A DNA stretch of 64,000 bases from a virus (IMGVR_UViG_2786546133_000001:1-64000), one strand, 5' to 3'; counted from the stretch's first letter, positions 33,604-60,793 are shown. A program made the numbers and translations. Notes: generated from the sequence alone by a model not told the origin.

Positions 33604-33676
33604 TACCCTGTGTGTCGACTGCTGGTTGTGGGCCGAGTCAAGCGCTACCAGGGGATTCACGCTCATGACTCAGGCC
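33604..33676 (+). promoter_or_regulatory. Late leader element copy 1: -10, motif and start-sequestering hairpin
   Basis: TACCCT at 33604; CTGGTTGTGGGCCGAG at 33622-33637; GGCC-GAGTCA pairs with TGACTC-A-GGCC over ATG 33665. Confidence 0.75.
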
Positions 33677-34294
33677 ACGCACGTCCGGACCGCCGTCCTC
33701 GCCCTCGACGAGCTCACCCCGTATCCCGGTAACCCTCGCGTCGGGAACGTGCCGTCGATCCTCCAGAGCCTCCGCCGGAACGGGCAGTACCGCGGGCTCG
33801 TCGTCCGCGACGAAGGCAACGGCCGGCTCGTCATCCTCGCCGGCAACCACACCGCGAAGGCGCTCGCCGCGCACGGCCCGGAAGCCTGCGACTACACAGT
33901 CAAGGTCAACGGCACCGAGCGGCCCTGCGGCGTCTGCCAGAACCAGCCATGGGAGCCGAGCGCCCGCGTCGACGTCATCACCTGCGACGACGACACCGCC
34001 CGCCGCATCGTCCTCGCCGACAACAAGACCAGCGACGACGGCACGTACGACAACGACGCCTTGGCCGAACTGCTCAGCTACCTCGACGAGGACGGCTACG
34101 AAGGCACCGGCTACAGCGACGACGAGGTCACGCGGCTGATCCACGTCGACCTCCCCGAGGGCTTCGAGTCGTACGCCGAAGACGTCGCCGACCAGCCCGG
34201 CACGTCGAGCAGCGAACCGGCGACCGCGTTCATTCACACCTGCCCTAACTGCGGCCACGAGTTCCAGACCGGCGCGACCGGCACCGACAGCTGA
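33665..34294 (+). CDS. ParB/Srx N-terminal-domain protein (paralog of 31893) with C-terminal CPNC
   Basis: LTPYPGNPR...GQYRGLVV...ILAGNHT...LADNK. Confidence 0.8.
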   Translation: MTQATHVRTAVLALDELTPYPGNPRVGNVPSILQSLRRNGQYRGLVVRDEGNGRLVILAGNHTAKALAAHGPEACDYTVKVNGTERPCGVCQNQPWEPSARVDVITCDDDTARRIVLADNKTSDDGTYDNDALAELLSYLDEDGYEGTGYSDDEVTRLIHVDLPEGFESYAEDVADQPGTSSSEPATAFIHTCPNCGHEFQTGATGTDS

Positions 34295-35343
34295 TGGGCG
34301 CCTACAAGGACCGACTCGACGCGCTGTGGGCGGCACACGTCGCCCCGCGCGCCGACGACGCACCCACAGTCGTCAGCACGTTCGCGGGGGGCGGAGGATC
34401 GAGCCTGGGCTACGGCGCGGCCGGTTTCCGCGAGCTCCTCGCCGTCGAGTGGGACAAGCACGCCGCGATGTGCCTGCGTCGCAACTTCCCCGAGGTCGAG
34501 GTCTTCCACGGGGACATAGCCAAGGTCGACCCCTCGATCCTCGACCTCGCGCCCGGCGAGCTCGACGTCTTCGACGGCTCCCCGCCCTGCCAGGGCTTCA
34601 GCACCGCCGGGAAGCGGCAGATCGACGACCCCCGCAACGGCCTGTTCCGCGAGTACGTCCGCCTGCTCGACGCCTGGCAGCCGAAGGTGTTCGTGATGGA
34701 GAACGTGTCGGGCATGGTCAAGGGCCGCATGCGCTCCCTGTTCGCGGAGATCCTCGGCGCCCTCAAGACGGCCGGTCCGGGGTACCGCGTCGTCGCCCGG
34801 CTCGTCGACTGCGGGTACTTCGGCGTCGCCACCATGCGACAGCGCATGATCTTCGTCGGCGTCCGCGAGGACCTCGCCCTCGACCCCGTCCACCCCGCCC
34901 CGCAGATGCGGCCGCCCGTCCTGCGCGACGCCCTCGAAGACCTCGGCGACCCCGGCCTCATCCTCCACCCCAAGGGCGGGATCACCACGCTCGCGCCGCT
35001 CGTACCGCCAGGCCGCGACGGCGCCGACGTCCTGCACTCACGCGGTGCTCGACGAGCGTTCTTCAACCTCCAGCGCGCCCACTGGGACCGGCAATGCTGG
35101 ACGATCACCAAGAGCATGGCCCCCGGACGTCACGGGATCATGCACCCCGACGAGAACCGCTTCCTGTCCTCGCGCGAGATCTGCCGCATCCAGGGCTTCC
35201 CCGACGCCTACGACTGGGGCGAGAGCCGGCTGCAAGACATCTGGGCCCGCGTCGGCAACAGCGTCCCGCCGCCCCTCATGCTCGCCGTCGCCTCCACCAT
35301 CCGCGACCGCATCCTCACCCCCGCCCGCACCCGGCGCGAGTAG
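34294..35343 (+). CDS. C5 DNA cytosine methyltransferase
   Basis: FAGGGG, GSPPCQGFS, ENV, RQRMIF, R.QGFP, VGNSVPP. Confidence 0.93.
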   Translation: MGAYKDRLDALWAAHVAPRADDAPTVVSTFAGGGGSSLGYGAAGFRELLAVEWDKHAAMCLRRNFPEVEVFHGDIAKVDPSILDLAPGELDVFDGSPPCQGFSTAGKRQIDDPRNGLFREYVRLLDAWQPKVFVMENVSGMVKGRMRSLFAEILGALKTAGPGYRVVARLVDCGYFGVATMRQRMIFVGVREDLALDPVHPAPQMRPPVLRDALEDLGDPGLILHPKGGITTLAPLVPPGRDGADVLHSRGARRAFFNLQRAHWDRQCWTITKSMAPGRHGIMHPDENRFLSSREICRIQGFPDAYDWGESRLQDIWARVGNSVPPPLMLAVASTIRDRILTPARTRRE

Positions 35344-35392
35344 TTGAAAACCAGAACTAGGACAAAGAACCGGACACGAGCGAGGGGGGCCC

Positions 35393-35818
35393 ATGCAGGG
35401 CAAGTCACCAAAGCAGCGGCTCACCGCCGCCGAGCGCCGTAAGCAGGCGTTCGGCCTGTACCTCGCCGGCGTCGACCTCGGCACCATCGCGCAGCAGGTC
35501 GGCTACGCCAACGCGAGCAACGCCCACCGCGCGATCAAACAGGCCATCGAGGAGAGCACCGTCCGCGAGCAGCTCGAACAGACACAGGCGTCCATGGACG
35601 ACGCTCGGCGCCTGGCCATGCTGCGGTACGACCGGCTACAGGCGGCGTTCTGGGGAGCGGCGGTCAAGGACAAGGACCGGCACGCGGCGAACATCGTGCT
35701 TAAGTGCATGGCGGGCCGGGACAAGCTGACCGGCGTCGAGGCGCCCCGCAAGGTCGAGCACTCGGGCGAGGTCACCACGTACGAGATCATCGGCGTCGAC
35801 CCGGACGACCTCGTATGA
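35393..35818 (+). CDS. Terminase small subunit
   Basis: N-terminal HTH (IAQQVGYA); KVEHSG tail; ATGA-coupled to TerL. Confidence 0.8.
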   Translation: MQGKSPKQRLTAAERRKQAFGLYLAGVDLGTIAQQVGYANASNAHRAIKQAIEESTVREQLEQTQASMDDARRLAMLRYDRLQAAFWGAAVKDKDRHAANIVLKCMAGRDKLTGVEAPRKVEHSGEVTTYEIIGVDPDDLV

Positions 35819-37299
35819 CCACGGTCGCCGAGCGGACGGCGCCGGTCGTCACCTTCGAGGCGCGCGGCGCGCACCGCAAGCTGCTGCTGTGCCGGGACAC
35901 CGAGGTCGCCGCCGTAGGCCGGGCCGGCTCGGGGAAGACGCTCGCGGCGTGCTGGAAGCTGCACCTGACGGCACTCAAGGTGCCGAACCTGCGGGCCCTC
36001 ATGCTGCGCGCGACGCACACGAGCCTGACGGCGACGACGCTCGTGTCCTTTCAGCGGTACGTCGCCGCGGCGGCGCTCGCCGACGGCTCGGTCCGCTGGT
36101 TCGGCGGATCGGGCAAGGATCCGGCGGCGTTCCGGTACGCCAACGGCAGTCAGATCCTCGTCGCCGGCGGCGACCGGCCCGAGAAGTTCCTGAGCGCCGA
36201 ACTCGACCGGATCTTCTGTGACGAGGGCGTCGAGATCAGCCTCGACCTGTACGAGACGCTGATCTCCCGTCTGCGCGGCGCGGCGCCGACGTACAAACAG
36301 ATCATGCTCGCGACTAACCCGAGCCACCCGCAGCACTGGATCAAACAGCGCGCCGACGGCGCTCAGCTCACGATGATCACCTCGGGGCACCAGGACAACC
36401 CCGCCTATGTGCGGCCCGACGGCACGTACACCGAGGCCGGCCGCGAGTACATGGAGAAGCTCGACGCGCTGACCGGCGTGCGCCGGGCGCGGCTGAAGGA
36501 CGGGCGTTGGACGAGCGCCGACGGCGCCATCTACGAGGAGTGGGACGACACGGTGCACGTCGTCGACCGCTTCCCCGTGCCCGACGAGTGGCCGCGGATC
36601 TGGGGTGTCGACTTCGGCTTCACGAACCCTTTCACGGTGCAGTGGTACGCGATCGATCCGGACGGCCGGCTGTGGATGTACCGCGAGCTGTATATGACCC
36701 GGCGCACCACGGACGAGCACGCGAGGACGATCCTCGACGCCGTCACCGTCGTCGACGAGGAGACCGGCGAACGCGAGTGGACGGAGCCGAGGCCCGTCGC
36801 GATCGTCTGCGACCACGACGCCGAGGACCGCGCGATCCTGGAGCGCGAGCTGGGGCTCGTCACGACGGCGGCGCACAAGGCGGTGAAGACCGGCATCCAG
36901 GCCGTCAAGGCGCGGCTGCGACCGGCCGGTGACGGACGCCCGCGGTTCTACGTCATGCGGGACACGCTGATCGAGCGGGACGAGCAGCTCGCCGAGGCGA
37001 AGAAACCGATGTGCTTCACGGACGAGGTGCCGGGCTACGTGTGGGCGAAGCCGGCCGCGGCGAAGGTCGGCAGCAAGGCCGAGCCCGAAGAGCCCTTGAA
37101 GGTCGACGACCACGGGATGGACACGGCGCGGTACGTCGTCGCCGAGCTGGATCTCGTCGGCGAGGCGCGTATCCAGTCGCCGACCAGGCGCGGCCCGCAG
37201 CAAGGGCCGGGCGGGCGGGGACGTCCGACGGCGGCCTCACGGTACGGGCGGGTCGTCGGCGGCCCGAACGGCACGGGCGGCGGCGGAGGCCGCCGGTGA
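35815..37299 (+). CDS. Terminase large subunit
   Basis: Walker A GRAGSGKT, Walker B IFCDEG, ATNP, GVDFGFTNP, DHGMDTARY. Confidence 0.93.
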   Translation: MTTVAERTAPVVTFEARGAHRKLLLCRDTEVAAVGRAGSGKTLAACWKLHLTALKVPNLRALMLRATHTSLTATTLVSFQRYVAAAALADGSVRWFGGSGKDPAAFRYANGSQILVAGGDRPEKFLSAELDRIFCDEGVEISLDLYETLISRLRGAAPTYKQIMLATNPSHPQHWIKQRADGAQLTMITSGHQDNPAYVRPDGTYTEAGREYMEKLDALTGVRRARLKDGRWTSADGAIYEEWDDTVHVVDRFPVPDEWPRIWGVDFGFTNPFTVQWYAIDPDGRLWMYRELYMTRRTTDEHARTILDAVTVVDEETGEREWTEPRPVAIVCDHDAEDRAILERELGLVTTAAHKAVKTGIQAVKARLRPAGDGRPRFYVMRDTLIERDEQLAEAKKPMCFTDEVPGYVWAKPAAAKVGSKAEPEEPLKVDDHGMDTARYVVAELDLVGEARIQSPTRRGPQQGPGGRGRPTAASRYGRVVGGPNGTGGGGGRR

Positions 37300-37340
37300 G
37301 CGCGCTCGGCACTCCGCACGCCCGGCGTACCGTCGACGCC

Positions 37341-37616
37341 ATGGATCAGGACGCGCTCGCAGAGAAGTACCTTCACGGCCCGCTCGGCGCCGAGATCCGG
37401 GCCTCGATCGACTGGGCCCGGACCATCAGCTCGTCGGGCGACGTGCACACGCTCGAACTGTTCTTCAACCCCGCCGACGTCGAGGACGTGCCCACGGGCG
37501 CGACCCTGTTCGGGTACCGCGTGTGCCGCTCGATCGGCGTCCCCGTCGGGAAGGTGCTCGTCTTCGACCGCCCGTGGGGCAAGTACATCCGCCGCGGCGT
37601 CTACCCGCAGGCCTGA
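37341..37616 (+). CDS. Hypothetical protein (alternative start GTG 37296)
   Basis: GC3-biased frame after TerL. Confidence 0.65.
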   Translation: MDQDALAEKYLHGPLGAEIRASIDWARTISSSGDVHTLELFFNPADVEDVPTGATLFGYRVCRSIGVPVGKVLVFDRPWGKYIRRGVYPQA

Positions 37617-37623
37617 CGCCGTC

Positions 37624-37833
37624 GTGAGCGAGCGAGAGCTGAGCGACGCCGAGCAGCGCATCCGGGCGTCCATGAGACGCGCGCTCAGGGCGGAGCTGCG
37701 CCGCATGGGGGGCGGCGTGCTCAGGATGCCGCGCCGGTTCCTGGCCGACGACGTGCCGCGGGGTGAGGGGGGTCAGGCGCCGCCGGCCACGGGGTGTGTT
37801 GACCCGCGCCGTCCGGACACTGCATCGGCATGA
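37624..37833 (+). CDS. Hypothetical protein
   Basis: Short ORF continuing the operon; weak support. Confidence 0.35.
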   Translation: MSERELSDAEQRIRASMRRALRAELRRMGGGVLRMPRRFLADDVPRGEGGQAPPATGCVDPRRPDTASA

Positions 37834-37952
37834 CCGGCGGTGCCTGCGCCGTCCCGCCCAGGCCCGAAGCCATCGGCGCGGGGACGACCCGCCGTCGAGC
37901 GGCGGCGCGGTCACGATAGCCCGGCCGTCTCGCCGGGCGCCGCTCCGACGTC

Positions 37953-38240
37953 TCACCGTGAGGCGACCGGCCGCCGACTGCGGGACGCGTACGCCCTCGC
38001 CGTCCAGAGAGATCGCGTCACCGCTGCTCGCCGCAGCCTCGCCCGCCGGTCCGTGCGCCGCTGCTCGGCCTCGGCCGCCTCACGCTCGGCGAACGCGCGC
38101 CCGATGTCCCGCAGCACCTCGCCGGCCAGGTCACGCCGGTCGGGCCCGAACGGTACGCCCGTGAACGCCAGGGAGGGACTCGCGATCCACCCCCGGCGGT
38201 GCAGCCACCGCTTCACCGCGCCCCGTATGCGTGCCCTCAC
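37953..38240 (-). CDS. Hypothetical basic protein (antisense)
   Basis: GGAGGG RBS, GTG at 38240 coupled to upstream stop. Confidence 0.5.
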   Translation of the reverse strand: MRARIRGAVKRWLHRRGWIASPSLAFTGVPFGPDRRDLAGEVLRDIGRAFAEREAAEAEQRRTDRRARLRRAAVTRSLWTARAYASRSRRPVASR

Positions 38241-38467
38241 GTGCGTTCCCTCCGTCGGCGTCGGGGGAGCGTAGCCCGGCCCCGCTGCTCGTCGTGCTCG
38301 TCGGGAATGAACGCCGTCTCGGCCGGCTCGCTGCTGCCGGGCTCGTAGATGAGCAGCTCGACGCCGCCCTCGACCGGCACCTCGACAGCCGACAGCGGCG
38401 GCCCCTCGGGCCCGTACGGCGCCGTCCCCCGCCCGTCCCCGGTGCGACGCCCGCAACAGGTGTTCAT
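38237..38467 (-). CDS. Hypothetical protein (antisense)
   Basis: ATG at 38467; MNTCCGRR...ELLIYEP. Confidence 0.5.
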   Translation of the reverse strand: MNTCCGRRTGDGRGTAPYGPEGPPLSAVEVPVEGGVELLIYEPGSSEPAETAFIPDEHDEQRGRATLPRRRRRERT

Positions 38468-38544
38468 GACACGACGGTAGGGGCGAGCGCTGACACACGC
38501 CCCCGAAATAGGACAACGCACCAGACCGCGCGCACCCTGCGTGC

Positions 38545-38573
38545 ACACTGTGCGCAGTGGCGCGCAGTATCCT
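38545..38573 (+). promoter_or_regulatory. Putative head-operon promoter with GCGCAGT repeats
   Basis: GCGCAGTGGC/GCGCAGTATC overlapping -10 TATCCT. Confidence 0.5.
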
Positions 38574-38615
38574 GACCGCCGTCCGTGACCTGGGGATCTT
38601 GACGGAGGCGGCCCT

Positions 38616-38948: not shown

Positions 38949-38951
38949 CCC

Positions 38952-40688: not shown

Positions 40689-40915
40689 CCGGCCCGCAGA
40701 CGCCCGGCACGCCGCCCCAGCGCCCGCGTGCCGTCCTCGCACGCCTCGACGTCGGCAACCTCCGCGAAGACCTGTGGTGTGCCGACTGCAAGGCGCTGAG
40801 CGGCTTCGCCGTCGATGTGCTCGCCATGCACGACGGCGGCGTGACCGTCGTCGGCACCGTGACCGGCTGCTCGATCTGCATGGACGCCGACCCTCCGGGG
40901 GTGGGCCGTGGCTGA
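40685..40915 (+). CDS. Small zinc-ribbon protein
   Basis: ATGA coupling; CADC...CSIC. Confidence 0.65.
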   Translation: MTGPQTPGTPPQRPRAVLARLDVGNLREDLWCADCKALSGFAVDVLAMHDGGVTVVGTVTGCSICMDADPPGVGRG

Positions 40916-43900
40916 CACCGTGGACCAGGCGCTCGCCGACGCCGAGCGCGACGTCGCCGACGAGGTGCGCGCCGTCCTCGACGAACTCGCCGACGACATC
41001 GCCGCCGGCCTGGCGGACGCGACCGAGATCGTCGCCGCCCGCTGGTCGCTGTCTCGCATCGCCGGCATGTGGAGCGCGAAGGTGCCCCGCATCATGCGCC
41101 GGCTGTTCCGCGTCGCCGAGACGGCCGGCGAGCAGGCCGCGAACGACGTCGACGCCACGTTGCCCGACACGTGGGACGGCCTGCCCGGCCGGTACGACCG
41201 CGGCGACCTCCCGGCGTCGCTCGGCGACTACGCCACCAGCACAGAGCACCTGTTGCGCGCCGTCGGCGACCGGCTCACCGAAGCCGCGGTCGCCGCGCTC
41301 GCCGAGGGCCTCGACGCAGGCGAGGACACCGCCCAGCTCCGCGCCCGGCTGCGTGCCCTGTTCGCCGCCGACGGCGCCCAGCTCGGCGAGTCCCGCGAGG
41401 AGCTGATCGCCCGGACCGAAGCCGTGCGCGCGTGGAATGGGGCGACGCTCGCCGCCGCGCAGGACCTGACGGGCGCGGACCGGCCGCTCGTCAAGCAGTG
41501 GCGCACCCGCGGCGACACCCGCGTCCGCGACAGCCACCGCAAGGTGGACGGCTTCGTGCGGCTGCTCGACGACCCGTTCACCGTCGGCGGCGTCGACATG
41601 CAGTACCCCGGCGACCCGGCCGCGCCCGCCGACCAGGTCTGCAACTGCCGCTGTGTCCTGCGATTGCAGCGCGCCGAAGCGTCGGCGTCCGCAGGAAGTC
41701 AGGCGGGCCTCGGAGACGAATCTTCGAATCAAGGGCAGGCGACTGCCGCGGCTGACGGGAGCCACCTCATGGGCGGCATGATCGCGCTCATCCCCACCCG
41801 CGAGGACGCCGAGCGTCTCGCCCTCGACGGCGGCGAGGCCGCCGACGAACTGCACTGCACGCTGATGTTCCTCGGCGACCAGGGCGGCGACTGGACCACC
41901 GACCAGCGAAACGAACTGATCGCTGGTATCCGCGCGCGCTTCGCCGCGCTGCCCGGCCCCATCGACGCCCGCCTGTTCGGCGTCAACCACTGGAACCCCG
42001 GCGAGAACGGCGTATGGGTGTGGGCGACCGGCGACGACAGCCCCGCCTACCCGGCGCTGCCCGACGCCCGCGCGCTCGCCGTCGAGGCGCTGGAAGACAC
42101 CCACGAGCGCCCCGAGGTGCCCGAGCAGCATTCGCCCTGGGTCGCCCACGTCACGGGCGCGTACGACGCCGGTACGTGGCCTCTCGACCCGATGTGCGAG
42201 CGCCTCGGCCCGGTCCGGTTCGACCGCGTCCGCGTCGCGTTCGGCGGCGAGCACACGGACATCCCGCTCGGCCCCGAGGAGGAGCCCATGCCCGATACCA
42301 GCGCCGCGGCGTACGAGCCGCCCGTCCGCACCTGGTCCACGCCCGACGGCACCGCCCTTGCCTACGAGAACCAGGAGACCGGCGACGGCCGCGTGTTCGC
42401 CGCCGGCTCCCTGTACTGGGACGGCGCCGGCCCGTGGCCGCTCCAGTACGCCGACGAGATGGGCATGGGCCACGACGGCGCCGAACTCGCGGGCGCGATC
42501 CAGGCCATGAACCGCAACGGCGACCGGCTGACCGGTAACGGCGTGCTGTACCTGACGCAGCAAGCCGGCTGGGAGGCGTCGACGCTGCTCGACCAGAAGG
42601 CGCCGCTCGGCGTGTCCGTCGACCTCGATGACGTCAGTGTCGAGCTCGTCGACAACACCGCCCCGGCCGACGGGCAGCCGGCCGACGGCGGCGACGGGGG
42701 CGACGGCGCGCCGGTCCTCGCGTCCGCGACATACGCCCGCGCCTCCGTGCTGCGGCTCGGCGACGACGGATGGGTGATCACCGCGAGCAGCGCGATCGAG
42801 ACGACCGCCTCGGCCGCCGCCCTCACCCGCGCCGTGCAGACCGTGCAGGTCATCTCTGGGCCAGGCGGCCGCATCCCCGCCGACACGGCGCGCGCCCTGT
42901 TCCCCGGCGCGCTGACGGCCGCCGCCGGCGACGCCGACAACCCGGACGGCGGGGTCGTCGTCCACGCCGAGAACGCAGGCGACTACCTGGTCCGCATCAC
43001 CCGCGCCCGTGTCCGCGGCGCGACGCTCGTCGCGATGCCCGCCTACGACAAGGCGCGCATCGTCATCGACCCCGAGCAGGTCCCCGAGGGCGAGCCGACG
43101 CAGGCGCCCGCCGAGGACGTCGCTGCGGCGGCCGGCTCCGACCTCACGCGGGTCGTCGCGCACGTCTGCGGCGCCCCGACGCCGGTCAGCGCCCGCGACG
43201 TCGCCGCCGCGCTCGGCCTCACCCTGTCGACGACGAAGCGGCACCTGCGCGCCGCCGTCCGTGACGAGCGGATCGTCCGCCTCGGGCGCGGCCTGTACGC
43301 CGCCCCGTCGACGATCCCCGAAGGCGACGTGTCGGCCGCCGCGACCGACGACCAGGCGACCGGCGAGCAGCCCACCGGCCACAACAGCGACGACGGCGAC
43401 CACGGCCACGGCCACGGCATGACCGAACTGGAGGCGTCCGCCTGGACCGCCATGCGCGCCGCGCCGCCGATGCCCGCCGCCTGGTTCCGCGAGCCCACCG
43501 AGGAGGAACTGCCGCCCGGCAGCGGCGGCGTGCACTTCGCGGACGGCCGGATCTGGGGATGGGTCGCACAGGCCGGTGTCCCGCACGCCACGCACGGCCG
43601 GAAGGTCACGATCGAGAAGCTCGCCGCGAACGACGGGCTGGACCTGTCGCACTTCCTGCGCGCCCGGTTCACCCTCGACGACGGCAGCGAGGTCCGCGCC
43701 GGCGCCTTCACGATGAACGTCGGCCACCACCGCGACGGCTACGAATGCGAGACGGCAGCCTGCCAGTTCGACGACTCGCGGACCGTCGCCGGGATCGTCA
43801 CGGTCGGCATGAGCGAGGGCGGCCTGTGGTTCAGCGGCGCGGCGTCGCCGTGGCTCGGCGAGTGGGATCTGAACGTCTTCCGCTCGTGTCAGCCGAGCTA

Positions 43901-44297
43901 CCACATGACGCAGGGGCCCGACGGCCGTTGGCAGCTCCGCGCGGTCCTGTCCGTGCCCGTGCCCGGCCACTCGTCGCCGCTGCTCGCGTCCGCCGTCGTC
44001 GAGCGGTCGAACCTCGCGCTGACGGCCGCCGCCGCCCTGGCCGACGTCGCCGAGCCGGCCGCGCCGGTCGACGAGCCTGAGCCCGAGCACGCGCGCGCCG
44101 ACGACGCCTCGCCGGTCGTCGAGCAGCTCACGGCGGCATTCCTCACCCCGACGTTCCTCGACACCTTCGCCGCTGCACTGGAGGAGCGGCAGCAGCAGCG
44201 CGCCGAGGTGCGCGCAGAGGTCGAGGCACTCGCGGCCCTGGTCGAACCGGGCGCCGCGATCACCGCAAGCGCTGCACCGCAGCAGGAAGGACGCTGA
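40908..44297 (+). CDS. MuF-like minor head protein fused to 2H phosphoesterase, protease-like domains and an HTH
   Basis: IARTE...KQW....D.RVRDSH...YPGDP...NCRC; HCTL...HVT; GH...GVSVD...GATLVAMPA. Confidence 0.8.
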   Translation: MADTVDQALADAERDVADEVRAVLDELADDIAAGLADATEIVAARWSLSRIAGMWSAKVPRIMRRLFRVAETAGEQAANDVDATLPDTWDGLPGRYDRGDLPASLGDYATSTEHLLRAVGDRLTEAAVAALAEGLDAGEDTAQLRARLRALFAADGAQLGESREELIARTEAVRAWNGATLAAAQDLTGADRPLVKQWRTRGDTRVRDSHRKVDGFVRLLDDPFTVGGVDMQYPGDPAAPADQVCNCRCVLRLQRAEASASAGSQAGLGDESSNQGQATAAADGSHLMGGMIALIPTREDAERLALDGGEAADELHCTLMFLGDQGGDWTTDQRNELIAGIRARFAALPGPIDARLFGVNHWNPGENGVWVWATGDDSPAYPALPDARALAVEALEDTHERPEVPEQHSPWVAHVTGAYDAGTWPLDPMCERLGPVRFDRVRVAFGGEHTDIPLGPEEEPMPDTSAAAYEPPVRTWSTPDGTALAYENQETGDGRVFAAGSLYWDGAGPWPLQYADEMGMGHDGAELAGAIQAMNRNGDRLTGNGVLYLTQQAGWEASTLLDQKAPLGVSVDLDDVSVELVDNTAPADGQPADGGDGGDGAPVLASATYARASVLRLGDDGWVITASSAIETTASAAALTRAVQTVQVISGPGGRIPADTARALFPGALTAAAGDADNPDGGVVVHAENAGDYLVRITRARVRGATLVAMPAYDKARIVIDPEQVPEGEPTQAPAEDVAAAAGSDLTRVVAHVCGAPTPVSARDVAAALGLTLSTTKRHLRAAVRDERIVRLGRGLYAAPSTIPEGDVSAAATDDQATGEQPTGHNSDDGDHGHGHGMTELEASAWTAMRAAPPMPAAWFREPTEEELPPGSGGVHFADGRIWGWVAQAGVPHATHGRKVTIEKLAANDGLDLSHFLRARFTLDDGSEVRAGAFTMNVGHHRDGYECETAACQFDDSRTVAGIVTVGMSEGGLWFSGAASPWLGEWDLNVFRSCQPSYHMTQGPDGRWQLRAVLSVPVPGHSSPLLASAVVERSNLALTAAAALADVAEPAAPVDEPEPEHARADDASPVVEQLTAAFLTPTFLDTFAAALEERQQQRAEVRAEVEALAALVEPGAAITASAAPQQEGR

Positions 44298-44300
44298 ACT

Positions 44301-44453
44301 GTGGGATGCAACTGCAAGAACAAGACTCAGTACGAGGTCGTCAACAGCGAAGGGACGGTCGTGTTCGGGCCGACGCCGTACAAGACGACCGCCGACGCCA
44401 TGGCGACCCGGCACCAGGGCACCGTGCGCGAGGTCGCGAAGGACGGCGGCTGA
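44301..44453 (+). CDS. Small protein MGCNCK... (50 aa, not in ORF track)
   Basis: GTG start, TGATG coupling to next gene. Confidence 0.7.
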   Translation: MGCNCKNKTQYEVVNSEGTVVFGPTPYKTTADAMATRHQGTVREVAKDGG

Positions 44454-44823: not shown

Positions 44824-44887
44824 TAAGATTCCTTTCGACCGCTGGTTATGGGCCGGGTCTCCTTGAGTCACAGGAGACGCGGTCATG
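44824..44887 (+). promoter_or_regulatory. Late leader element copy 2
   Basis: TAAGAT at 44824; CTGGTTATGGGCCGGG at 44842-44857; GTCTCCT/AGGAGAC and GGCCG/CGGTC stems hide RBS up to ATG 44885. Confidence 0.8.
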
Positions 44888-46558: not shown

Positions 46559-46569
46559 CCCTTACGCCA

Positions 46570-53866: not shown

Positions 53867-53879
53867 GGAGACGCGCGCC

Positions 53880-55419: not shown

Positions 55420-55910
55420 TGACGGGGACGGCCGCGAGTCTCAACCTCGTCGACGGGGCGTGGGCGCAGACGGGCACGCTCAACTTCCTGCACACGCTCA
55501 CCGGGGCACTCCGGGCCTGGGAGACCGTGCCCGAGGTGCCTTTGCTGACCATCCCGCGCGCCGGCGTGTGGGAGGTCAACTATCAGGTGCGCGGAGTCGC
55601 GCTGCTCCCGGCGCCGGGAGCAGCGGCCATCGACACGGGTGTCGTCGCCGGTATGTACAAGAACGGGGCCCTCGTTCCCGGCACGGAAGCCATGGTCATC
55701 TACCACAGCGAAGCTGCGGGCGACCAGGGAAAGCAGATCCAGGCGACGGCCTCACGACAGTTCATGCACACGTTCGCCGCCGGGGACACGGTGGGCCTCG
55801 GCGCCTACCGCCTCGGTACGTCCGGCAGCGCCTCAGTGGTCAGCAACGGCGACGGCCGTACGTACATCTCGGCCCACTGGGTCGCCCCGGAAGGGGACAG
55901 CCCCTCATGA
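55419..55910 (+). CDS. BclA-CTD/C1q-like protein, paralog 3
   Basis: MTGTAASL; IPRAGVWEVNYQV; F.AGD.V.L. Confidence 0.65.
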   Translation: MTGTAASLNLVDGAWAQTGTLNFLHTLTGALRAWETVPEVPLLTIPRAGVWEVNYQVRGVALLPAPGAAAIDTGVVAGMYKNGALVPGTEAMVIYHSEAAGDQGKQIQATASRQFMHTFAAGDTVGLGAYRLGTSGSASVVSNGDGRTYISAHWVAPEGDSPS

Positions 55911-56377
55911 CCGGTACCGCCGCCAGTCTTCGCATCGCCGGTAGTGGCTTCGCTGTCCTGCCGGGAGGCGTCGACCTCATGCCGGCCGCCTCCGGGGCGT
56001 GGGTCGATATCGGGTTGTCGCTCGCGCTCCCCGCGGCCGGCACGTACCACCTGGACGCGGTTGTCCGGGGCAACATCGGCCGCATGACCACGGGTGAGAA
56101 CGCGTACATCGCCGCCCGGCTGTGGGACGTCACCGCGGGCGCCGTCGTGCCCTTCACTGAGGCCATCGTCGTGCAGATCGCCGAGTTCGCCGGGGGTGCC
56201 GCGACGGCGTTGCAGTGGAACGACTCCGCCGCGATCAGCGTCGAGTACGCGGTCACGTCGCCGAGAACGATCCGCCTCGAAGCCGCCCGGACCGATATCT
56301 CGGGTACCACCGACGTCGCCGGTATCGGTTCCGGCGGAATCCAGCAAACCACCCTGCGCTACGCGCGCATCGCGTGA
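55907..56377 (+). CDS. BclA-CTD/C1q-like protein, paralog 4
   Basis: MTGTAASL; LPAAGTYHL; ARLWDVTAGAVVP shared with paralog 1. Confidence 0.65.
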   Translation: MTGTAASLRIAGSGFAVLPGGVDLMPAASGAWVDIGLSLALPAAGTYHLDAVVRGNIGRMTTGENAYIAARLWDVTAGAVVPFTEAIVVQIAEFAGGAATALQWNDSAAISVEYAVTSPRTIRLEAARTDISGTTDVAGIGSGGIQQTTLRYARIA

Positions 56378-56399
56378 CCCTTCACCTGGAGGAATCCTC

Positions 56400-56867
56400 A
56401 TGGCAGGAACCAGCGGTAGCGTCGCGGGACGGCCAGATCTTGAGTACGAGATCCTGTGTGACACGGCGGGGGCGTTCCTGCGCCGGTACGTCTTGGACGA
56501 CACGGGCGCCCTCACGCACGTCGACACAACCCTGGACGGTGCGGCGTACGTCCCGGTGGGGGCCGTGCAGCGCTGCTCGACGCCCGCCGCCCCCGCGAAC
56601 CCGGTTATCGACGGCACGATCCAGCGGCAGCCCGGCGTAGGAACCATCACGATCCCGGCGGGAGCCCGCTCGATCACCCTCGTCGTCTACACGGGAAACC
56701 CGACCGTCGCCATCGGAGGCGGTCCGGCCGTAACGGTCGCGGCCGGGACCTCGCTCACGTGGGGCGTCGACCGAGGCGGCGACGCCGGCGAGAGCCTGCA
56801 AGACGCCTACGTTTTCACCGGCGTCGCGGGCAGTGACTTCCTCGTCTCGTCGACCCGCGAGATCTGA
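56400..56867 (+). CDS. Short paralog of the Cys-rich repeat proteins
   Basis: One LCD..GAFLRR...TLDGAAY.P.G.V..C repeat plus the shared C-terminal domain. Confidence 0.7.
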   Translation: MAGTSGSVAGRPDLEYEILCDTAGAFLRRYVLDDTGALTHVDTTLDGAAYVPVGAVQRCSTPAAPANPVIDGTIQRQPGVGTITIPAGARSITLVVYTGNPTVAIGGGPAVTVAAGTSLTWGVDRGGDAGESLQDAYVFTGVAGSDFLVSSTREI

Positions 56868-57172
56868 TGACCACGGCCGGGGACTACGAAGCGCCGCAGC
56901 GTCGGCAGGAACGCGCCACCGCTGTCACGGACGCCAACGGCTCGGCCGTCTTCAACTGGCCCGCCGGGGCGTTCCCAGGCCCGCCGGTCGTCGCGCTCGC
57001 CGTCGAGGCGGGGGCCGGATTCCGCTCCGCGCGGATCTCGGCGAACACCGCGACGTCGACGACGGTCAACGTGCTTCAGGCGGCCGGCGTGACCATCCTC
57101 GGTATCGGCGTCCTCGCCACGGGTACGCCCGCGGCGGGGGTCACCGTTCACGCGACGGCGACGGCCCCTTAG
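56867..57172 (+). CDS. Small putative fibre-associated protein
   Basis: Coupled start; TDANG...WPAGAF..PPVV. Confidence 0.6.
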   Translation: MTTAGDYEAPQRRQERATAVTDANGSAVFNWPAGAFPGPPVVALAVEAGAGFRSARISANTATSTTVNVLQAAGVTILGIGVLATGTPAAGVTVHATATAP

Positions 57173-57189
57173 CGCTGATCGCCGACCGA

Positions 57190-57256
57190 TAAACTCAACT
57201 CTTGAGCCGCTGGTTTTGGGCCGGGCCCTCTGATCCTTCAGGAGGGTGCGGCCGTG
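57190..57256 (+). promoter_or_regulatory. Late leader element copy 3
   Basis: TAAACT at 57190; CTGGTTTTGGGCCGGG at 57210-57225; GGCCG/CGGCC and CCCTC/GAGGG stems hide RBS before GTG 57254. Confidence 0.8.
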
Positions 57257-57928
57257 TCCTGTCCGCTCATTGCCAACGCCGACGTCATGCGCGTCACACG
57301 CCTCGACCAGTGCGGCAACCCCATCACCGGCGCCGACAACGGGTTCGTCTTCGAGTGCTTCAGCTCGCTCGCGATGAACAACAACTCCGACGACGGCGAC
57401 GACATCGAGTACAAGGCCGCCAACGGCAAGATCTGTGGTTTCAAGAAGGGCTGCCCCACCTTCAAGGGTTTCGACCTGGAGCTGAACGTGTTCAGCGTCT
57501 CCCCGGAGCTGATCGAGATCCTCACGGGGAACCCGGTCTACCTGGGGTTCGACGGCGCACCGATCGGCTTCGACACGTGCTCGATCAAATGCGACACGGG
57601 CTTCGCGCTGGAGCTGTGGGCCGAGGTCCTCGGCGACCAGTGCGCGGCGGGCGCACAGGGGCAGTGGATCTACTTCCTGCTGCCGTGGGTCACGAACGGT
57701 CTGCTCGGCGACCTGGAGATCGGCAGCGAGGCCGTGACGCTCCAGATCACCGGCTCGACGCGCGCGGGTGGCGCGTGGGGTGTCGGCCCGTACAACGTTC
57801 AGCCGGCCGACGCCGCGGGCACGCCCGGCCCGATGCTCACCCCGCTCGATGCGTCCTGCCACCGCCGGACGTTCATCACGACCACGCCGCCGCCGGTCCC
57901 GTCCTGTGACTACGTCGCGGTGCCGTGA
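57254..57928 (+). CDS. Major tail (tube) protein
   Basis: MRVTRLDQCG...FALELW...YFLLPW...G.GPYNV; position. Confidence 0.75.
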   Translation: MSCPLIANADVMRVTRLDQCGNPITGADNGFVFECFSSLAMNNNSDDGDDIEYKAANGKICGFKKGCPTFKGFDLELNVFSVSPELIEILTGNPVYLGFDGAPIGFDTCSIKCDTGFALELWAEVLGDQCAAGAQGQWIYFLLPWVTNGLLGDLEIGSEAVTLQITGSTRAGGAWGVGPYNVQPADAAGTPGPMLTPLDASCHRRTFITTTPPPVPSCDYVAVP

Positions 57929-57958
57929 CCGTAGACGGCCTACCGAGCGGCCGTGAGG

Positions 57959-57988
57959 CAGCCGTACGGCCTGAGCGCCGTACGGCTG
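57959..57988 (+). terminator. Stem-loop after tail tube gene
   Basis: CAGCCGTACGGC-ctgagc-GCCGTACGGCTG. Confidence 0.55.
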
Positions 57989-58024
57989 CACCATTCCCAA
58001 CCACCAGCGGCGAGAGGTCCGCAG

Positions 58025-58831
58025 ATGGCGCTACAGCAGCCCTTGTGTGAGCCGTGGCCGTTCGATCCGTCGTGCTGCTCGGCGGCCGAGGGCGTCGACG
58101 AGGCGGTCATCGACCGTTGGCGGTCCGTGGCGACGACGATCCTGTTCAACCTGTCCGGCCGGCGGTGGGGGCCGTCGTGCCCGTACACGGTGCGCCCGTG
58201 CCGTCGGCGCTGCCTCGACGCGCTGCCGCTCGCCGCGTCCTGGTCGTACGGCTCGCCGTGGATCCCGTACATCGGCAGCGACGGCGAGTGGCGCAACGCG
58301 AGCGTGTGCGGCTGCCGGTCCGACTGCTCGTGCGACGAGCTGTGCGAAGTCCGCCTCGAAGGGCCGGTGTACGACGTGCTCGGCGTCGAGGTCGACGGCG
58401 TGACGCTGCCGGCGTCGGCGTACCGCGTCGACGACGCCGGGATGCTGGTCCGCACCGACGGGCAGTGCTGGCCCGACTGCCAGAGCATGGCGGCGCCGCT
58501 CGGCCAGCCGGGCACGTTCGGCGTTCACTACCGGATCGGGCTGCCGCTCGACGATGCGGCGATCGCCGCATACAGCGAACTCGTCTGCCACTTCCTCAAG
58601 GGGTGCGGCGGCGGGGCGTGCGGCTGCAAGATCCCGGCGAACGTCACGCGGCTGAGCCGGCAGGGCGTCGAGCAGGAGTTCAGCGACCCGACGCTCATCT
58701 ACTCCGAGATGCGCACCGGCCTGCCGCTCGTCGACCTGTGGCTGACGACCGTCAACCCCTACCGGCAGACCTCGCCGTCGCGGGTCTACTCCCCCGACTT
58801 CCGGCGCCCCAGGGCGCAGACCTGGCCGTAA
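58025..58831 (+). CDS. Head-to-tail adaptor, Cys-rich
   Basis: LSGRRWG..C..TVRPC...VTRLSRQGV...TGLP.VD.WL..VNP. Confidence 0.75.
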   Translation: MALQQPLCEPWPFDPSCCSAAEGVDEAVIDRWRSVATTILFNLSGRRWGPSCPYTVRPCRRRCLDALPLAASWSYGSPWIPYIGSDGEWRNASVCGCRSDCSCDELCEVRLEGPVYDVLGVEVDGVTLPASAYRVDDAGMLVRTDGQCWPDCQSMAAPLGQPGTFGVHYRIGLPLDDAAIAAYSELVCHFLKGCGGGACGCKIPANVTRLSRQGVEQEFSDPTLIYSEMRTGLPLVDLWLTTVNPYRQTSPSRVYSPDFRRPRAQTWP

Positions 58832-58843
58832 GGAGGCCCCGCC

Positions 58844-59428
58844 GTGGCGTTGCGCCCTACGGCCATTCACGACCTCGCGCAGGCCGTCCTCGCGTGCGTG
58901 TGCGCGGCGTTGGAGGAGACGGCCGCAGAGGTCCCCGGACAGCCCGGCTGTCCGTGCCGCGCGTGCGTCGTGCCGGGCACGCCGGCCTGGGACTCGTGCG
59001 CCGACCCGTGCACAGGCGATACCGGCGGGCAGCTCACGGTCAACGTCGCCCGCGTGTACCCGTCGAGCGACTTCCCGACGCAGTCCAACGACGTGCAGGG
59101 CGTCCGCGGCTGTATGCCCGCGCCGGTCACCGCCGTCGAGCTCGTTATCACGTTGCTTCGCTGCGCGCCGGGCCCGAACGAGAACGGCTGCCCGCCGTCG
59201 TGCGACGACCTCGCCGCCGCGGCGCAGGTGCTGCACGTCGACGCCGTGACCGTCATGAACGCCCTGTACTGCTGCCTGCCCGGCCTCGGCGAGGCCCGCC
59301 GGGGCCTGAAGTTCGTCGTCGGCGCGCAGCGCACCATCGGGCCCGAGGGCCTCTGCGTCGGCGTCGAGCAGCGCGTCACCGTGGCACTGGGCGGCTGCTC
59401 GTGCCCCGAGGAAGGAGTCAACCCGTGA
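58844..59428 (+). CDS. Tail terminator/completion-like protein, Cys-rich
   Basis: AAGGAGG RBS; GPEG.C.G; position. Confidence 0.6.
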   Translation: MALRPTAIHDLAQAVLACVCAALEETAAEVPGQPGCPCRACVVPGTPAWDSCADPCTGDTGGQLTVNVARVYPSSDFPTQSNDVQGVRGCMPAPVTAVELVITLLRCAPGPNENGCPPSCDDLAAAAQVLHVDAVTVMNALYCCLPGLGEARRGLKFVVGAQRTIGPEGLCVGVEQRVTVALGGCSCPEEGVNP

Positions 59429-59829
59429 GTGTCGAGGTCACGGTCAACCCGGACGTGATCGCTCGTCTGCTGCGGCGCCGCGGCGGGACGGTCGAGCGGA
59501 AGCTGCGGCAGCGGACCGAGCGCGTCGCGAACATCGCGGAGAACGAGGCGCCGGGCAGCATGGGCGACTACGTCTCGTGGGACGTCACAGAGGGGGCGCG
59601 CGGACTTCAGGGCGTCATCGTCTGCGACCATCCGGCCGTCCTGTTCGTGCTCAAGGGGACGCGGCCACACATCATCCGGCCCCGCCGTCAGCGGTCGGCG
59701 AGGAACCCCCGGCGACGGGCGATGCTGCGCTTCGAGACCGGCGGCCGCGTCGTCTTCGCGAGGCAAGTCCACCACCCCGGCACCCGCGCGAACAACTTCC
59801 TGGCGCGCGCCCTGCGCATGGGCCGTTGA
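59425..59829 (+). CDS. HK97 gp10-like neck/tail completion protein
   Basis: GTRPHIIRP...LRF...VVFARQVHHPGTRANNFL. Confidence 0.75.
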   Translation: MSVEVTVNPDVIARLLRRRGGTVERKLRQRTERVANIAENEAPGSMGDYVSWDVTEGARGLQGVIVCDHPAVLFVLKGTRPHIIRPRRQRSARNPRRRAMLRFETGGRVVFARQVHHPGTRANNFLARALRMGR

Positions 59830-59866
59830 CCCGAGCCGTCGAGCGCTCGGCGCCGCGACCAGCGGC

Positions 59867-59947
59867 TACCCTCGGGGGTGCGCTGCTGGTTGTGGGCCGG
59901 GCGAGGAGCGGGAGACAGGGATACACCTGTGCGTAAGTCCTTTGCCC
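59867..59947 (+). promoter_or_regulatory. Late leader element copy 4
   Basis: TACCCT at 59867; CTGGTTGTGGGCCGGG at 59886-59901; GGGCGAGGA/TCCTTTGCCC and ACAGG/CCTGT stems enclose GTG 59929. Confidence 0.75.
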
Positions 59948-60468
59948 TGAACACACAGCCACACGTCGCCGAGATCGGCGAGACCGAGCTCGAATTCCAG
60001 CCCGAAGTCATGGGCGACGAGTTCATGGACGCGTACGCCGAGATGCGCGACGCGCAGCAGGCGCAGGGCGTCGACCTCGACGACCTCGCCGAGGCGGACC
60101 CGAAGGTCGTCCGCGGTACGGTTCGCGCGCTGCGGGTGTTCCTCGCCCGGCAGATGCTGCCCGCGTCGGCGGCGCTGTTCCTCCGCCTGAACGTCGTCGA
60201 CTCGACCGGCGACGTCCTCGCGTCGTACGACGACCTGGGCGAGGCCGAGGCCGCCGCGGCAGAGAAGCCGGGCCGGCGCGTCGTCGACGAGCTGCGGCTT
60301 CCGACGCGCGTGATCGTCGAACTCCTCGAATGGGTCGTCGAGCTGTACGGGGGTGGCGACCGCCCTACTACGTCGTCTTCCGCATCTGCGACAGCATCGA
60401 GGCCGAGTGGAACGCGTGGGACGGGAGCCTCGCCCTCCAAGGCGTCGACCCGCACGCGTGGCCGCTAA
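59929..60468 (+). CDS. Tail assembly chaperone (gpG-like)
   Basis: Precedes tape measure; LLEWVVELYG...RPT then low-complexity tail. Confidence 0.75.
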   Translation: MRKSFALNTQPHVAEIGETELEFQPEVMGDEFMDAYAEMRDAQQAQGVDLDDLAEADPKVVRGTVRALRVFLARQMLPASAALFLRLNVVDSTGDVLASYDDLGEAEAAAAEKPGRRVVDELRLPTRVIVELLEWVVELYGGGDRPTTSSSASATASRPSGTRGTGASPSKASTRTRGR

Positions 60469-60704
60469 GGCGCATGCTGAACGCCGCCGAGGCCGCCATG
60501 AGCGCGGCGGCGGAAGACGACGCCGCGAGGCAGCGCAACCGGGCGAAGCTGTACGCGCCGCCGCCGCGTGCCGCTCGTAGGCAGACGGCGGGCACGAGCC
60601 GGCCGCGACCGGCGAGCGGAGGCCTGAGCCTGGACGCCGCTCGGGCGCTCATGTCCCAGGTCGCGAGCGAGGACGCGCGGCTCACGGGCCGGCGCAGCGG
60701 ATAA
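60330..60704 (+). CDS. Tail assembly chaperone frameshift extension (gpT-like, -1 frame)
   Basis: Overlapping -1 frame, PYYVVFRI...W..WDG.L...GVDP..WPL.R.LN. Confidence 0.7.
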   Translation: MGRRAVRGWRPPYYVVFRICDSIEAEWNAWDGSLALQGVDPHAWPLRRMLNAAEAAMSAAAEDDAARQRNRAKLYAPPPRAARRQTAGTSRPRPASGGLSLDAARALMSQVASEDARLTGRRSG

Positions 60705-60793
60705 TCTGGAGATCACGGCAGCGCCCCGGCGCTGCTGCTCGCCGACTGGTTATGGGCCGGGCACCGTTCACGACTTCGTGAGGGTGCCCGGTG
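60702..60793 (+). promoter_or_regulatory. Late leader element copy 5
   Basis: TAATCT at 60702; CTGGTTATGGGCCGGG at 60746-60761; CCGGGCACC/GGTGCCCGG and TCACGA/TCGTGA stems reach GTG 60791. Confidence 0.8.

Follow-up and report, generated by a model that had tools for sequence, protein, structure and literature searches.

What is the role of a short sequence that recurs ahead of the late genes of a Streptomyces prophage? The question is raised by a stretch of 64,000 nt (the window), the first 64 kb of an 89,635-bp IMG/VR provirus (IMGVR_UViG_2786546133_000001), in which the motif CTGGTT[AGT]TGGGCCG[AG]G stands five times in front of a late gene. An earlier note on this stretch had explained the motif as part of a toehold-like translational lock on late mRNAs, opened by one shared trans-acting factor, either a small RNA (sRNA) or a protein analogous to Mu Com. 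The observation is real, but the element is bigger than first described. The motif belongs to a bulged RNA hairpin, hereafter HP1, whose lower stem shows compensatory changes. The best reading, to which we assign a probability of about one half and whose mechanism we infer, is that this hairpin is part of a promoter-proximal 5'-leader RNA module for virion genes.

The copies start at positions 33622, 44842, 57210, 59886, and 60746, all on the plus strand, exactly as the earlier note had it, and 100 dinucleotide shuffles of the window contain no exact match. With up to three mismatches allowed, four further matches appear in the window, which is noise level (nine found, 3.36±1.87 expected). The copy number of five holds for the window and not for the provirus, which has eight exact copies (the additional ones at 68489, 69291, and 70548), all on the late-gene strand and none on the other. 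Each of the eight stands behind a -10-like hexamer, gcTAnnCT, and is followed by a start codon 42-45 nt after the motif start. Nine copies are present in each of the complete relatives G001, G002, G003, and G005, all on the structural-gene strand, and in five Streptomyces genomes exact copies were found on one strand of one prophage region. In IMG/VR, the exact pattern occurs in at least 118 stretches, many of them with two to five copies. Among 185,579 species genomes scanned, most matches are single, and these we take to be chance; more than one copy was found solely in Streptomyces records among the matches listed. In the fetched loci (1.15 Mb), exact copies number 200, and one mismatch is seen in only 13 and two in 25; for the reversed pattern, the corresponding numbers are 0, 3, and 23.

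The genes behind the motif were correctly named in the earlier note. The copy at 33622 precedes a ParB-like gene that heads a block with a C5-methyltransferase and the large terminase (TerL). The copies at 44842, 57210, and 60746 precede the genes for the major capsid protein (phrog_777), the major tail protein (phrog_792), and the tape measure protein, respectively. The copy at 59886 precedes a gene of phrog_12617, whose homolog in the Streptomyces phage TurkishDelight is annotated as a tail assembly chaperone. The three additional provirus copies stand ahead of a tail-fibre-like protein and two Cys-rich proteins without a family. Among 135 leaders, nearly all genes behind the motif belong to the virion set, with capsid, major tail, chaperone, and tape measure genes and several families of minor-tail or fibre proteins.

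An alignment of 184 distinct copies anchored on the motif shows a conserved block G C Y G CTGGTTNTGGGCCGGG C, spanning positions -4 to +16. This extended motif, GCYG-CUGGUUNUGGGCCGG-GC, folds on itself into the 21-nt bulged hairpin HP1. A TAnnnT hexamer ends 8-18 nt 5' of the motif in 145 of the 200 exact copies, with a peak at 10-14 nt. Its logo is gcTAnnCT, where T1, A2, and T6 are invariant and the fifth position is C in 128 of 148 cases. In the window, the previously reported distances were reproduced: 12, 12, 14, and 13 nt in the first four copies and 38 nt in the fifth, where a small hairpin intervenes (Table 1). The -35 region of the aligned copies has no conserved signal. A pyrimidine-purine (Y-R) start-site dinucleotide is formed by position -5 (C or T in 124 of the 184 copies) and position -4 (G or A in 164), and the gap between the hexamer and the base of HP1 is approximately 6-10 nt. 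In 131 of 148 distinct copies, the distance from the motif start to a start codon preceded by a Shine-Dalgarno (SD) sequence is 38-51 nt (mode 44). The window values of 43, 43, 44, 43, and 45 nt are again those of the earlier note. The motif itself ends about 27 nt 5' of the start codon, and the SD sequence is situated in the variable segment, outside the motif.

No nearby hexamer was found for 52 distinct copies. Nine of these are second members of tandem pairs, and 17 have a TAnnCT farther upstream, mostly at 31-47 nt. The latter are chiefly tape-measure-type leaders in which, by eye, the gap is filled by a variable hairpin, as at window position 60746; equivalent spacing and a variable hairpin (also by eye) were seen, for instance, in the tape-measure-type leaders of loci L057, L086, L089, and L097. 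The remaining hexamer-less copies lack an upstream TAnnCT, and some of them are in contigs of lower G+C content. A scan for consensus promoters and terminators was uninformative at this G+C content, with three terminator sites in comparison with 4.2±2.2 in shuffles. An upstream open reading frame starting from an NUG in the loop was considered and rejected by eye, as N is C in 54 of the 184 copies and no SD sequence is found upstream.

The fold of HP1 was assessed on 147 sequences, 144 of them distinct. In HP1, a three-pair lower stem is followed on the 5' side by the bulge G(-1) C0; the upper stem comprises U1-G13, G2:C12, G3:C11, Y4:G10, and perhaps U5-G9 and carries a small G-rich loop. Pair -4:16 is GC in 125 cases, AU in 10, GU in four, UG in one, and other in four; pair -3:15 is CG in 134, UA in five, UG in four, and other in one; and pair -2:14 is CG in 100, UG in 31, UA in nine, and other in four. 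Lower-stem cells changed on both sides number 25, compared to 4.0±1.7 in shuffles, and none of 500 shuffles reaches 25; when the partner is slid by one to three columns, the count of double changes falls to 2-8. There are 40 G-U cells in the lower stem; thus pairing in plus-strand RNA fits these data and a DNA dyad does not. The compensation proves the three pairs of the lower stem alone, because the upper stem never varies apart from the change of U4 to C. The cells counted as other include the window copy at 60746, which has a one-base-longer bulge (GCC-GAC-UGG) and pairs when shifted by one; three more alignment rows end in GACTGG and may share this longer-bulge form. The thermodynamically preferred register, C0:G14, was rejected: it shows no covariation and is broken in nine copies with A14.

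The covariation in homologous phages that the earlier note had suggested looking for was therefore found, but for a pairing that it had not proposed. The same fold runs counter to its claim that the 5' half of the motif, CUGGUU, stays unpaired, since U1, G2, G3, U4, and possibly U5 form the upper stem of HP1; in the minimum free energy (MFE) structure of the leader at 44842, this segment pairs downstream. A covariance model of HP1 (R1) retrieves the five known copies alone in the window (E values from 5.5e-9 to 3.2e-4, the next best being 0.04). In five Streptomyces genomes the strong matches lie in prophage regions only, for which reason mimicry of a host element was rejected; one genome gave no strong match. 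Rfam, which the earlier note had advised searching, yielded no match at the gathering score for the window and none at E<=10 for the three copies within 57100-60900, so that the element is absent from the curated models searched.

The hairpin or related forms of it were found in other phages, including phages of other host genera. TurkishDelight (NC_073473, host S. scabiei) carries the identical motif ahead of the capsid, major tail, chaperone, tape measure, minor tail, and tailspike genes. The annotated GTG start of the last of these, gp33 (30557, within L273 30550-30600), lies inside the hairpin motif, and the ATG about 45 nt past the motif start (opening MARCGCA...) is more probably the true start, in agreement with the spacing in the family. 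In Woodruffvirus (phages YDN12, Xkcd426, Mischief19, and phiSAJS1), the form GCYG-CUGG-CGKUAGG-CCGG-GY precedes the capsid gene, in YDN12 and Xkcd426 also the major tail gene, and a related hairpin form precedes the tape measure gene. The Woodruffvirus hairpin is limited to these three types of leaders plus one further gene in phiSAJS1, and many other genes of this genus stand behind hairpin-less TAGACTGG sites. Hairpin-less promoter-like sites TA(A/G)(A/G)CTGG(T) were observed 30-40 nt ahead of start codons in the Woodruffvirus loci L127, L128, L272, and L274.

The capsid leader of Gordonia phage Tardus contains AUC-GC-UGG-CUAGGGG-CCG-GAU, with A:U, U:A, and C:G in the lower stem, and its major tail leader has the consensus stem; the covariance model retrieves the Tardus copies, which were outside its training set, at E values of about 0.01. 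In Microbacterium phage Kozie, two copies were found in the 18 kb fetched: ACCG-GC-UGG-CAGUAGGG-CCG-CGGU (A:U, C:G, C:G, G:C) in the capsid leader and ACUC-GC-UGG-CAGUAGGG-CCG-GAGU (A:U, C:G, U:A, C:G) in the tape measure leader. In the hairpins of Tardus, Kozie, and Woodruffvirus, the lower stem is wholly re-compensated; the bulge is still GC, the upper stem still UGG/CCG, and the loop still ends in UAGG(G) or UGGG. The capsid proteins of these phages are 32-34% identical to the window capsid protein over the aligned part. Two Microbacterium phages of the same capsid lineage, BirdInFrench and Metamorphoo, gave no match to a strict scaffold pattern, and a blastn search of the tail leader against phages gave no match.

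Between HP1 and the start codon, a second helix, HP2, occurs in part of the leaders. Folding of 131 leaders was compared with that of shuffles of their variable part. Natural leaders have an MFE of -23.5 kcal/mol versus -20.8 kcal/mol for shuffles (p 2e-11). Positions 11-16 of the motif are paired downstream more often than in shuffles (0.68 versus 0.50, p 1e-9), positions 0-8 less often (0.33 versus 0.45, p 1e-5), and the SD region more often (0.66 versus 0.60, p 5e-4), and pairing of the start codon does not differ significantly (0.64 versus 0.58, p 0.08). A Watson-Crick complement of at least 5 nt to motif positions 8-16 is present beside the start codon in 27 of the 131 leaders, compared with 15% of shuffles. 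The type of HP2 depends on the gene. In tape-measure leaders, a long helix extends from position 9 to past the start codon. Tail-tube leaders contain HP1 and a separate anti-SD:SD hairpin, with double changes at four pairs. In capsid leaders, GGAGA is buried in a stem that has its base paired to motif positions 9-14; this helix was described by eye and from single-sequence folds, as MAFFT misaligned the variable arms and RNAalifold recovered only the HP1 upper stem. The long helices of capsid and tape-measure leaders have approximately 18-20 bp with bulges. The 21 chaperone leaders are purine-rich and, by eye and not folded as a group, have no evident hairpin.

HP1 and the extended HP2 share positions 9-16 and are therefore mutually exclusive in capsid and tape-measure leaders. 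Hence HP1 is universal, burial of the ribosome-binding site (RBS) is gene-specific, and the exclusion between HP1 and a long helix is true for a part of the family. The earlier statement that the 3' end of every copy enters a long hairpin covering the RBS or start codon applies to 44842, 57210, and 60746; at 33622 and 59886, folding is indistinguishable from shuffles, with z scores near 0. The parts of the five window units are listed in Table 1.

Table 1. Parts of the five leader units in the window. E, covariance model E value; z, folding of the leader relative to shuffles.
Unit	Feature	Position	Strand	Remarks
1	-10-like hexamer TACCCT	33604..33609	+	8 nt ahead of the first base of the hairpin
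1	HP1 copy 1, ACUG-CUGGUUGUGGGCCG-AGU	33618..33638	+	E 4.8e-7; lower stem A:U, C:G, U:A, a compensated variant
1	Variable leader, SD GGGGA, ATG 33665 of ParB-like gene	33639..33667	+	No significant fold, z +0.32
2	-10-like hexamer TAAGAT	44824..44829	+	
2	HP1 copy 2, ACCG...GGGU, A:U closing pair	44838..44858	+	E 3.3e-7
2	HP2 GUCUCCU/AGGAGAC burying SD, then ATG 44885 of major capsid gene	44859..44887	+	z -3.79; outer pairs recruit motif positions 9-13
3	-10-like hexamer TAAACT	57190..57195	+	
3	HP1 copy 3, consensus GCCG...GGGC	57206..57226	+	E 5.5e-9
3	HP2 CCCUCUGA/UCAGGAGGG, anti-SD:SD, then GTG 57254 of major tail gene	57227..57256	+	z -2.73
4	-10-like hexamer TACCCT	59867..59872	+	
4	HP1 copy 4, GCUG...GGGC, U-G wobble in lower stem	59882..59902	+	E 1.1e-8
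4	Purine-rich leader GAGGAGCGGGAGACAGGGA, then GTG 59929 of putative tail assembly chaperone gene	59903..59931	+	No significant fold, z +0.19
5	-10-like hexamer TAATCT	60702..60707	+	
5	Extra 5' hairpin CAGCGC-cccg-GCGCUG, between hexamer and HP1	60719..60734	+	
5	HP1 copy 5, 3-nt bulge, GCC-GAC-UGG...CCG-GGC	60741..60762	+	E 3.2e-4
5	HP2 long helix GGGCACC.../...GGUGCCC, up to GTG 60791 of tape measure gene	60763..60793	+	z -3.33; recruits motif positions 13-16

Promoters without a -35 element and with a sigma-A-type -10 element are established in actinobacteria, and stem-loops within a few nucleotides of the 5' end stabilise mRNAs, for instance those of E. coli ompA, the T7 gene 10 leader, and the 5' stabilisers of B. 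subtilis. We propose that each unit consists of a -35-less, -10-only promoter-like site, HP1, a variable segment often containing HP2 with the SD sequence, and a start codon about 44 nt from the motif start. The hexamer would be recognised as a -10 element of the host sigma-A type, and host RNA polymerase would start at G(-4) or 0-4 nt before it, at the Y-R dinucleotide, so that HP1 probably marks the 5' end of each late mRNA. Formed at the extreme 5' end, HP1 could shield the mRNA from 5'-end-dependent RNases. A conserved factor, of the host or encoded in the virion module, would dock on the invariant bulge and loop. In capsid and tape-measure leaders, the 3' strand of HP1 could alternatively be captured by the RBS-burying helix, and formation or binding of HP1 would then favour translation; the end of HP1 about 27 nt before the start codon, together with this competition, suggests coupling to ribosome binding. 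The net effect would be that many separate promoters together raise the expression of capsid and tail genes in a coordinated manner.

Such a module resembles the known 5'-terminal stabilisers (ompA, T7 phi10, SP82, aprE), in which a short hairpin near the predicted 5' end of highly expressed mRNAs, including phage late mRNAs, is followed by a leader and an SD sequence; the hairpin of the T7 phi10 leader, of about 21 nt, has the size of HP1. However, these stabilisers act largely independently of sequence, whereas HP1 retains the same bulge, upper stem, and loop in hundreds of copies from different host genera, and the near-invariance of the motif (200 exact copies versus 13 with one mismatch) differs from the dependence on structure only that is expected of a 5' stabiliser. 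The 5'-terminal position of HP1 is suggested by the hexamer distance and the Y-R dinucleotide, and a stabilising effect is proposed here by analogy.

Several observations weigh against this reading. In tape-measure leaders and in second tandem copies, HP1 lies 30-47 nt from the hexamer, and a flush 5' end is therefore not obligatory. Thermodynamic folding of whole leaders seldom predicts HP1: the local pairing probability of positions 13-16 is at most 0.06, and the provirus copies lose 2-19 kcal/mol when HP1 is enforced. Except for U4 to C (5 of 144 sequences), no change occurs in the upper stem. Late timing and silence in the prophage are not explained by -10-only promoters. For stabilisation alone, an invariant bulge and loop should be unnecessary; they imply a specific partner, and none was identified. 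The sole component common to all hairpin-bearing phages is the structural module, and no structural protein separates the carriers from the Microbacterium relatives that lack matches to the strict scaffold.

The invariant bulge and loop thus imply specific recognition, and candidate partners were sought in several ways. The shared structural module spans a small membrane protein and the genes from the portal through the minor tail proteins, and the early regions of the carriers are unrelated; no regulator gene common to all carriers was found. A 418-aa protein encoded in the window at 16956-18212 (phrog_16651) has sub-threshold hints of sigma-70 region 4 and of an Xre-type helix-turn-helix (HTH). 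It is 40% identical over 205 aa to gp70 of YDN12 and is the only non-structural protein shared with that phage; as a universal partner it was rejected, since it is missing from five complete or near-complete carriers. A phage sigma factor was likewise rejected: Sigma70_r2 was not matched in five relatives, and the provirus gave a sub-threshold match to this region only. A WhiB-like gene was found in this provirus (at approximately 81.0-81.35 kb, minus strand, outside the window, with a Cys motif and GVWGG), in the relatives G001, G002, G005, and G013, and in TurkishDelight, YDN12 (gp38), and phiSAJS1 (gp46), and none was detected in G003. The WhiB-like protein is a possible activator of the -35-less promoters and is not tied to the hairpin. 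We infer that the partner, if any, is a conserved host component or a shared protein of the virion module. In its widest form, which is possible and is offered here tentatively, this idea would make HP1 an unnamed family of cis-acting leader RNAs, carried with one capsid-tail module through phages of at least three actinobacterial genera (Streptomyces, Gordonia, and Microbacterium) and recruiting such a factor to the 5' end of each virion mRNA.

A different explanation keeps the core of the earlier note: a late protein would bind HP1 and free an RBS buried by the 3' half of the motif, in the manner of Com acting on mom of phage Mu. In capsid and tape-measure leaders, HP1 and the extended HP2 cannot form together, which such a lock could use, and, as in Com/mom, an upstream hairpin there adjoins and excludes the helix burying the SD sequence and start. 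The fixed spacing to the start codon and the excess pairing of the SD region and of positions 11-16 over shuffles are consistent with it as well. In tail-tube leaders, however, the SD sequence lies inside HP2 with or without HP1. No lock was seen in the 21 chaperone leaders or at 33622 and 59886, a complement to motif positions 8-16 beside the start is confined to a minority of leaders, with a substantial fraction also in shuffles, and pairing of the start codon is not significantly above them. Moreover, the provirus has eight and its relatives nine targets, compared with one for Com, and a search of the whole provirus for a homolog of Com, a small zinc-finger protein (PF10122), gave no match at E<=1; nor is a regulator gene common to all carriers. 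Hence the shared, oriented leader signal on late genes stands, acting at the RNA level and with its 3' half burying the SD sequence or start in some leaders, and the universal lock does not. Opening by a Com-like protein is conceivable, and we judge it rather unlikely.

The position of HP1 just 3' of -10-like sites also recalls signals of processive antitermination or elongation, in which a nascent hairpin modifies RNA polymerase directly or through a protein, which would here let the enzyme traverse the long late region. As in lambda nut boxB/N, HK022 put, and HIV TAR/Tat, a promoter-proximal, oriented, bulged hairpin with a specific, invariant loop would be read in the nascent transcript; tandem copies exist, and the lack of a phage-encoded partner common to the carriers fits direct action on RNA polymerase, as for put. 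On the other hand, put consists of two stem-loops of about 70 nt and boxB of a 5-bp stem with a GNRA-like pentaloop, and HP1 is unrelated to them in size and sequence, has many copies per genome, and has no N-like or Tat-like partner that we could find. The tight spacing of 38-51 nt to the start codon is not expected of such a signal, eight or nine units every few kilobases make read-through less needed, and no terminators stand out over shuffles. This mechanism therefore appears improbable.

We would give as little credit to a processing site, at which a long polycistronic late RNA would be cleaved to leave monocistronic mRNAs protected by the hairpin, the TAnnnT hexamer then not being a promoter. 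RNase III sites of phage T7 direct endonucleolytic cleavage of this kind. The copies do lie in short intergenic gaps before single genes, the hexamer contains A and U and is 5' of a stable structure, and the HP2 helices of about 18-20 bp could be RNase III substrates. But RNase III would need a longer hairpin than HP1 by itself, the hexamer reproduces exactly the T-A-n-n-n-T logo of the actinobacterial -10 element at a narrow distance, the Y-R dinucleotide is at the predicted start, and the first provirus copy (33622) heads the late operon.

The many oriented, asymmetric intergenic copies over predicted starts resemble the stoperators of mycobacteriophage L5, and late promoters of a prophage must stay silent; a repressor or activator could thus read a 16-21-bp duplex site just 3' of each -10 element. 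Such a DNA operator is very unlikely, as compensatory changes and the 40 G-U cells are a prediction of RNA pairing and would be unrelated substitutions on duplex DNA. The early and immunity regions of the carriers are also unrelated, no repressor is shared, and lytic phages carry the element, for example Woodruffvirus Geonosis, described as virulent in the text of PMC11536984 available to us.

A toehold riboregulator, whose trans-acting sRNA would read CCGGCCCANAACCAG, is largely refuted: the shared sequence is invariant, positions 0-8 do pair downstream less than in shuffles, and some leaders have, like synthetic toehold switches, a hairpin able to bury the RBS or start behind a conserved 5' segment, but the supposed single-stranded segment is inside the covariation-supported hairpin, RBS burial is not universal, and, since transcription presumably starts after the hexamer, only about 0-4 nt could precede HP1 (the hexamer-to-hairpin gap being 6-10 nt where about 12 nt or more are required). 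The trigger RNA was not found either. Reverse complements of the motif did not exceed the control in six phage and provirus genomes (G000, G001, G002, G003, G005, and YDN12), the best in the provirus having three mismatches in 14 (11 matches versus 20 for the control), and none was found outside the prophage regions of the five Streptomyces genomes; the latter contain no host copy of the motif beyond these regions, where copies and strong model matches lie on one strand of one region. Pairing with 16S rRNA was rejected as well (-31.5 versus -29.9±2.0 kcal/mol).

The start-associated sequence (SAS) is a 13-bp conserved motif that coincides with the RBS and lies 3-8 bp upstream of the start codon. 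Jacobs-Sera et al. 2020 (PMC7302621; here and below, the accessible part of the text), who give the same placement, report SAS and extended SAS (ESAS) for cluster K mycobacteriophages and cluster EF Microbacterium phages. The same paper describes an unexplained 18-bp intergenic repeat in cluster EC that begins with TAGaCT, and, in cluster EI Microbacterium phages, a likewise unexplained intergenic repeat of 30 bp, present in five copies, and two adjacent ParB-like genes. All these repeats share with the present element an orientation, short intergenic gaps, and a set distance upstream of starts in actinobacteriophages; TAGaCT of cluster EC resembles our -10-like hexamer, and the paired ParB-like genes of cluster EI resemble the arrangement in the window. 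Unlike HP1, whose motif ends about 27 nt before the start and excludes the SD sequence, SAS overlaps the RBS, and no RNA structure, covariation, or cross-genus family was found described for the SAS, EC, or EI repeats in that text. Kozie, in which a variant of the hairpin was found, is a member of the genus Mementomorivirus, named like the cluster EI phage MementoMori of the same source, and the EI repeat may be the Kozie-type hairpin.

The earlier note knew of no description of the element, which is true of its fold and architecture as far as we could find; the EI repeat in PMC7302621 had been noted before. Searches of the literature with motif strings returned unrelated primers only, and those on actinobacteriophage late promoters, on Microbacterium and Gordonia phages, and on TurkishDelight returned nothing relevant. 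The available text of two cluster BG papers (PMC5511901 and PMC11536984) and of a Gordonia paper (PMC5559632) makes no mention of the motif, a promoter, or a stem-loop. Another known type, the promoter-stem-loop (PeSL) cassettes of T4-type phages, also combines a promoter and a stem-loop repeated among genes of one expression class. PeSLs have early promoters and were proposed to drive recombination; the present units stand before virion genes, and their hairpin forms part of the transcript leader. We therefore regard the element as a newly structure-defined variant of start-associated intergenic repeats and late-gene leader hairpins, whose fold, cross-genus spread, and module architecture were not found described.

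Some features of neighbouring loci were also observed. The two ParB-like genes of the window (31893-32816 and 33665-34294) flank a gene of the PF17338 GP88 family (32813-33586), and the second is followed by the C5 cytosine methyltransferase gene (34294-35343). A protein start of the form M-x-C-x-C is common among late proteins (MARACACDTYF, ARCQCGGGGCNC, and MASCKCGGGQCSC), with sites in the window at 44301-44453, in the rest of the provirus at 68531-71285, and in loci L127 (13406-13591), L275 (10877-11026), L276 (7017-7268), and L277 (12700-12864). A small basic protein of this type (50-140 aa) is encoded between the MuF/protease and capsid genes in every related phage examined, from Streptomyces, Gordonia, and Microbacterium. 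As a hairpin partner it was rejected, since it is also present in BirdInFrench and Metamorphoo, where the strict scaffold pattern finds no hairpin, and its presence does not track the hairpin. The window also encodes a 1129-aa MuF-like fusion (40908-44297) with sub-threshold matches to an AbiEi-type HTH (aa 760-799) and to "RNA ligase" PHROGs; the Tardus gene at the same pre-capsid position is partly homologous to it and is annotated as RNA ligase. Finally, a tRNA-Arg gene (anticodon CCG; 2970-3046, minus strand) near the left end of the provirus record is possibly the attachment region.

Late-gene control in actinobacteriophages is largely unknown, and repeated intergenic motifs have been catalogued without a mechanism, as in the part of PMC7302621 cited above. 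One such repeat is now a defined RNA structure with compensatory changes, in the architecture of -10 element, hairpin, SD sequence, and start codon. Hundreds of natural variants, including those of TurkishDelight, cultivable on S. scabiei, and of well-studied SEA-PHAGES clusters, make it directly testable. The element provides a compact, portable expression part for Streptomyces synthetic biology and an annotation marker for the true start codons of virion genes, such as the TurkishDelight tailspike gene, and a new Rfam family would be justified. If HP1 does recruit a conserved factor to virion mRNAs, then RNA polymerase, the ribosome, and an RNase would be among the candidate host factors, and a factor-dependent ON switch or a feedback loop for particle production could be envisaged. 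Such recruitment would also account for the correct expression of a late module after its transfer between phages whose early regions are unrelated.

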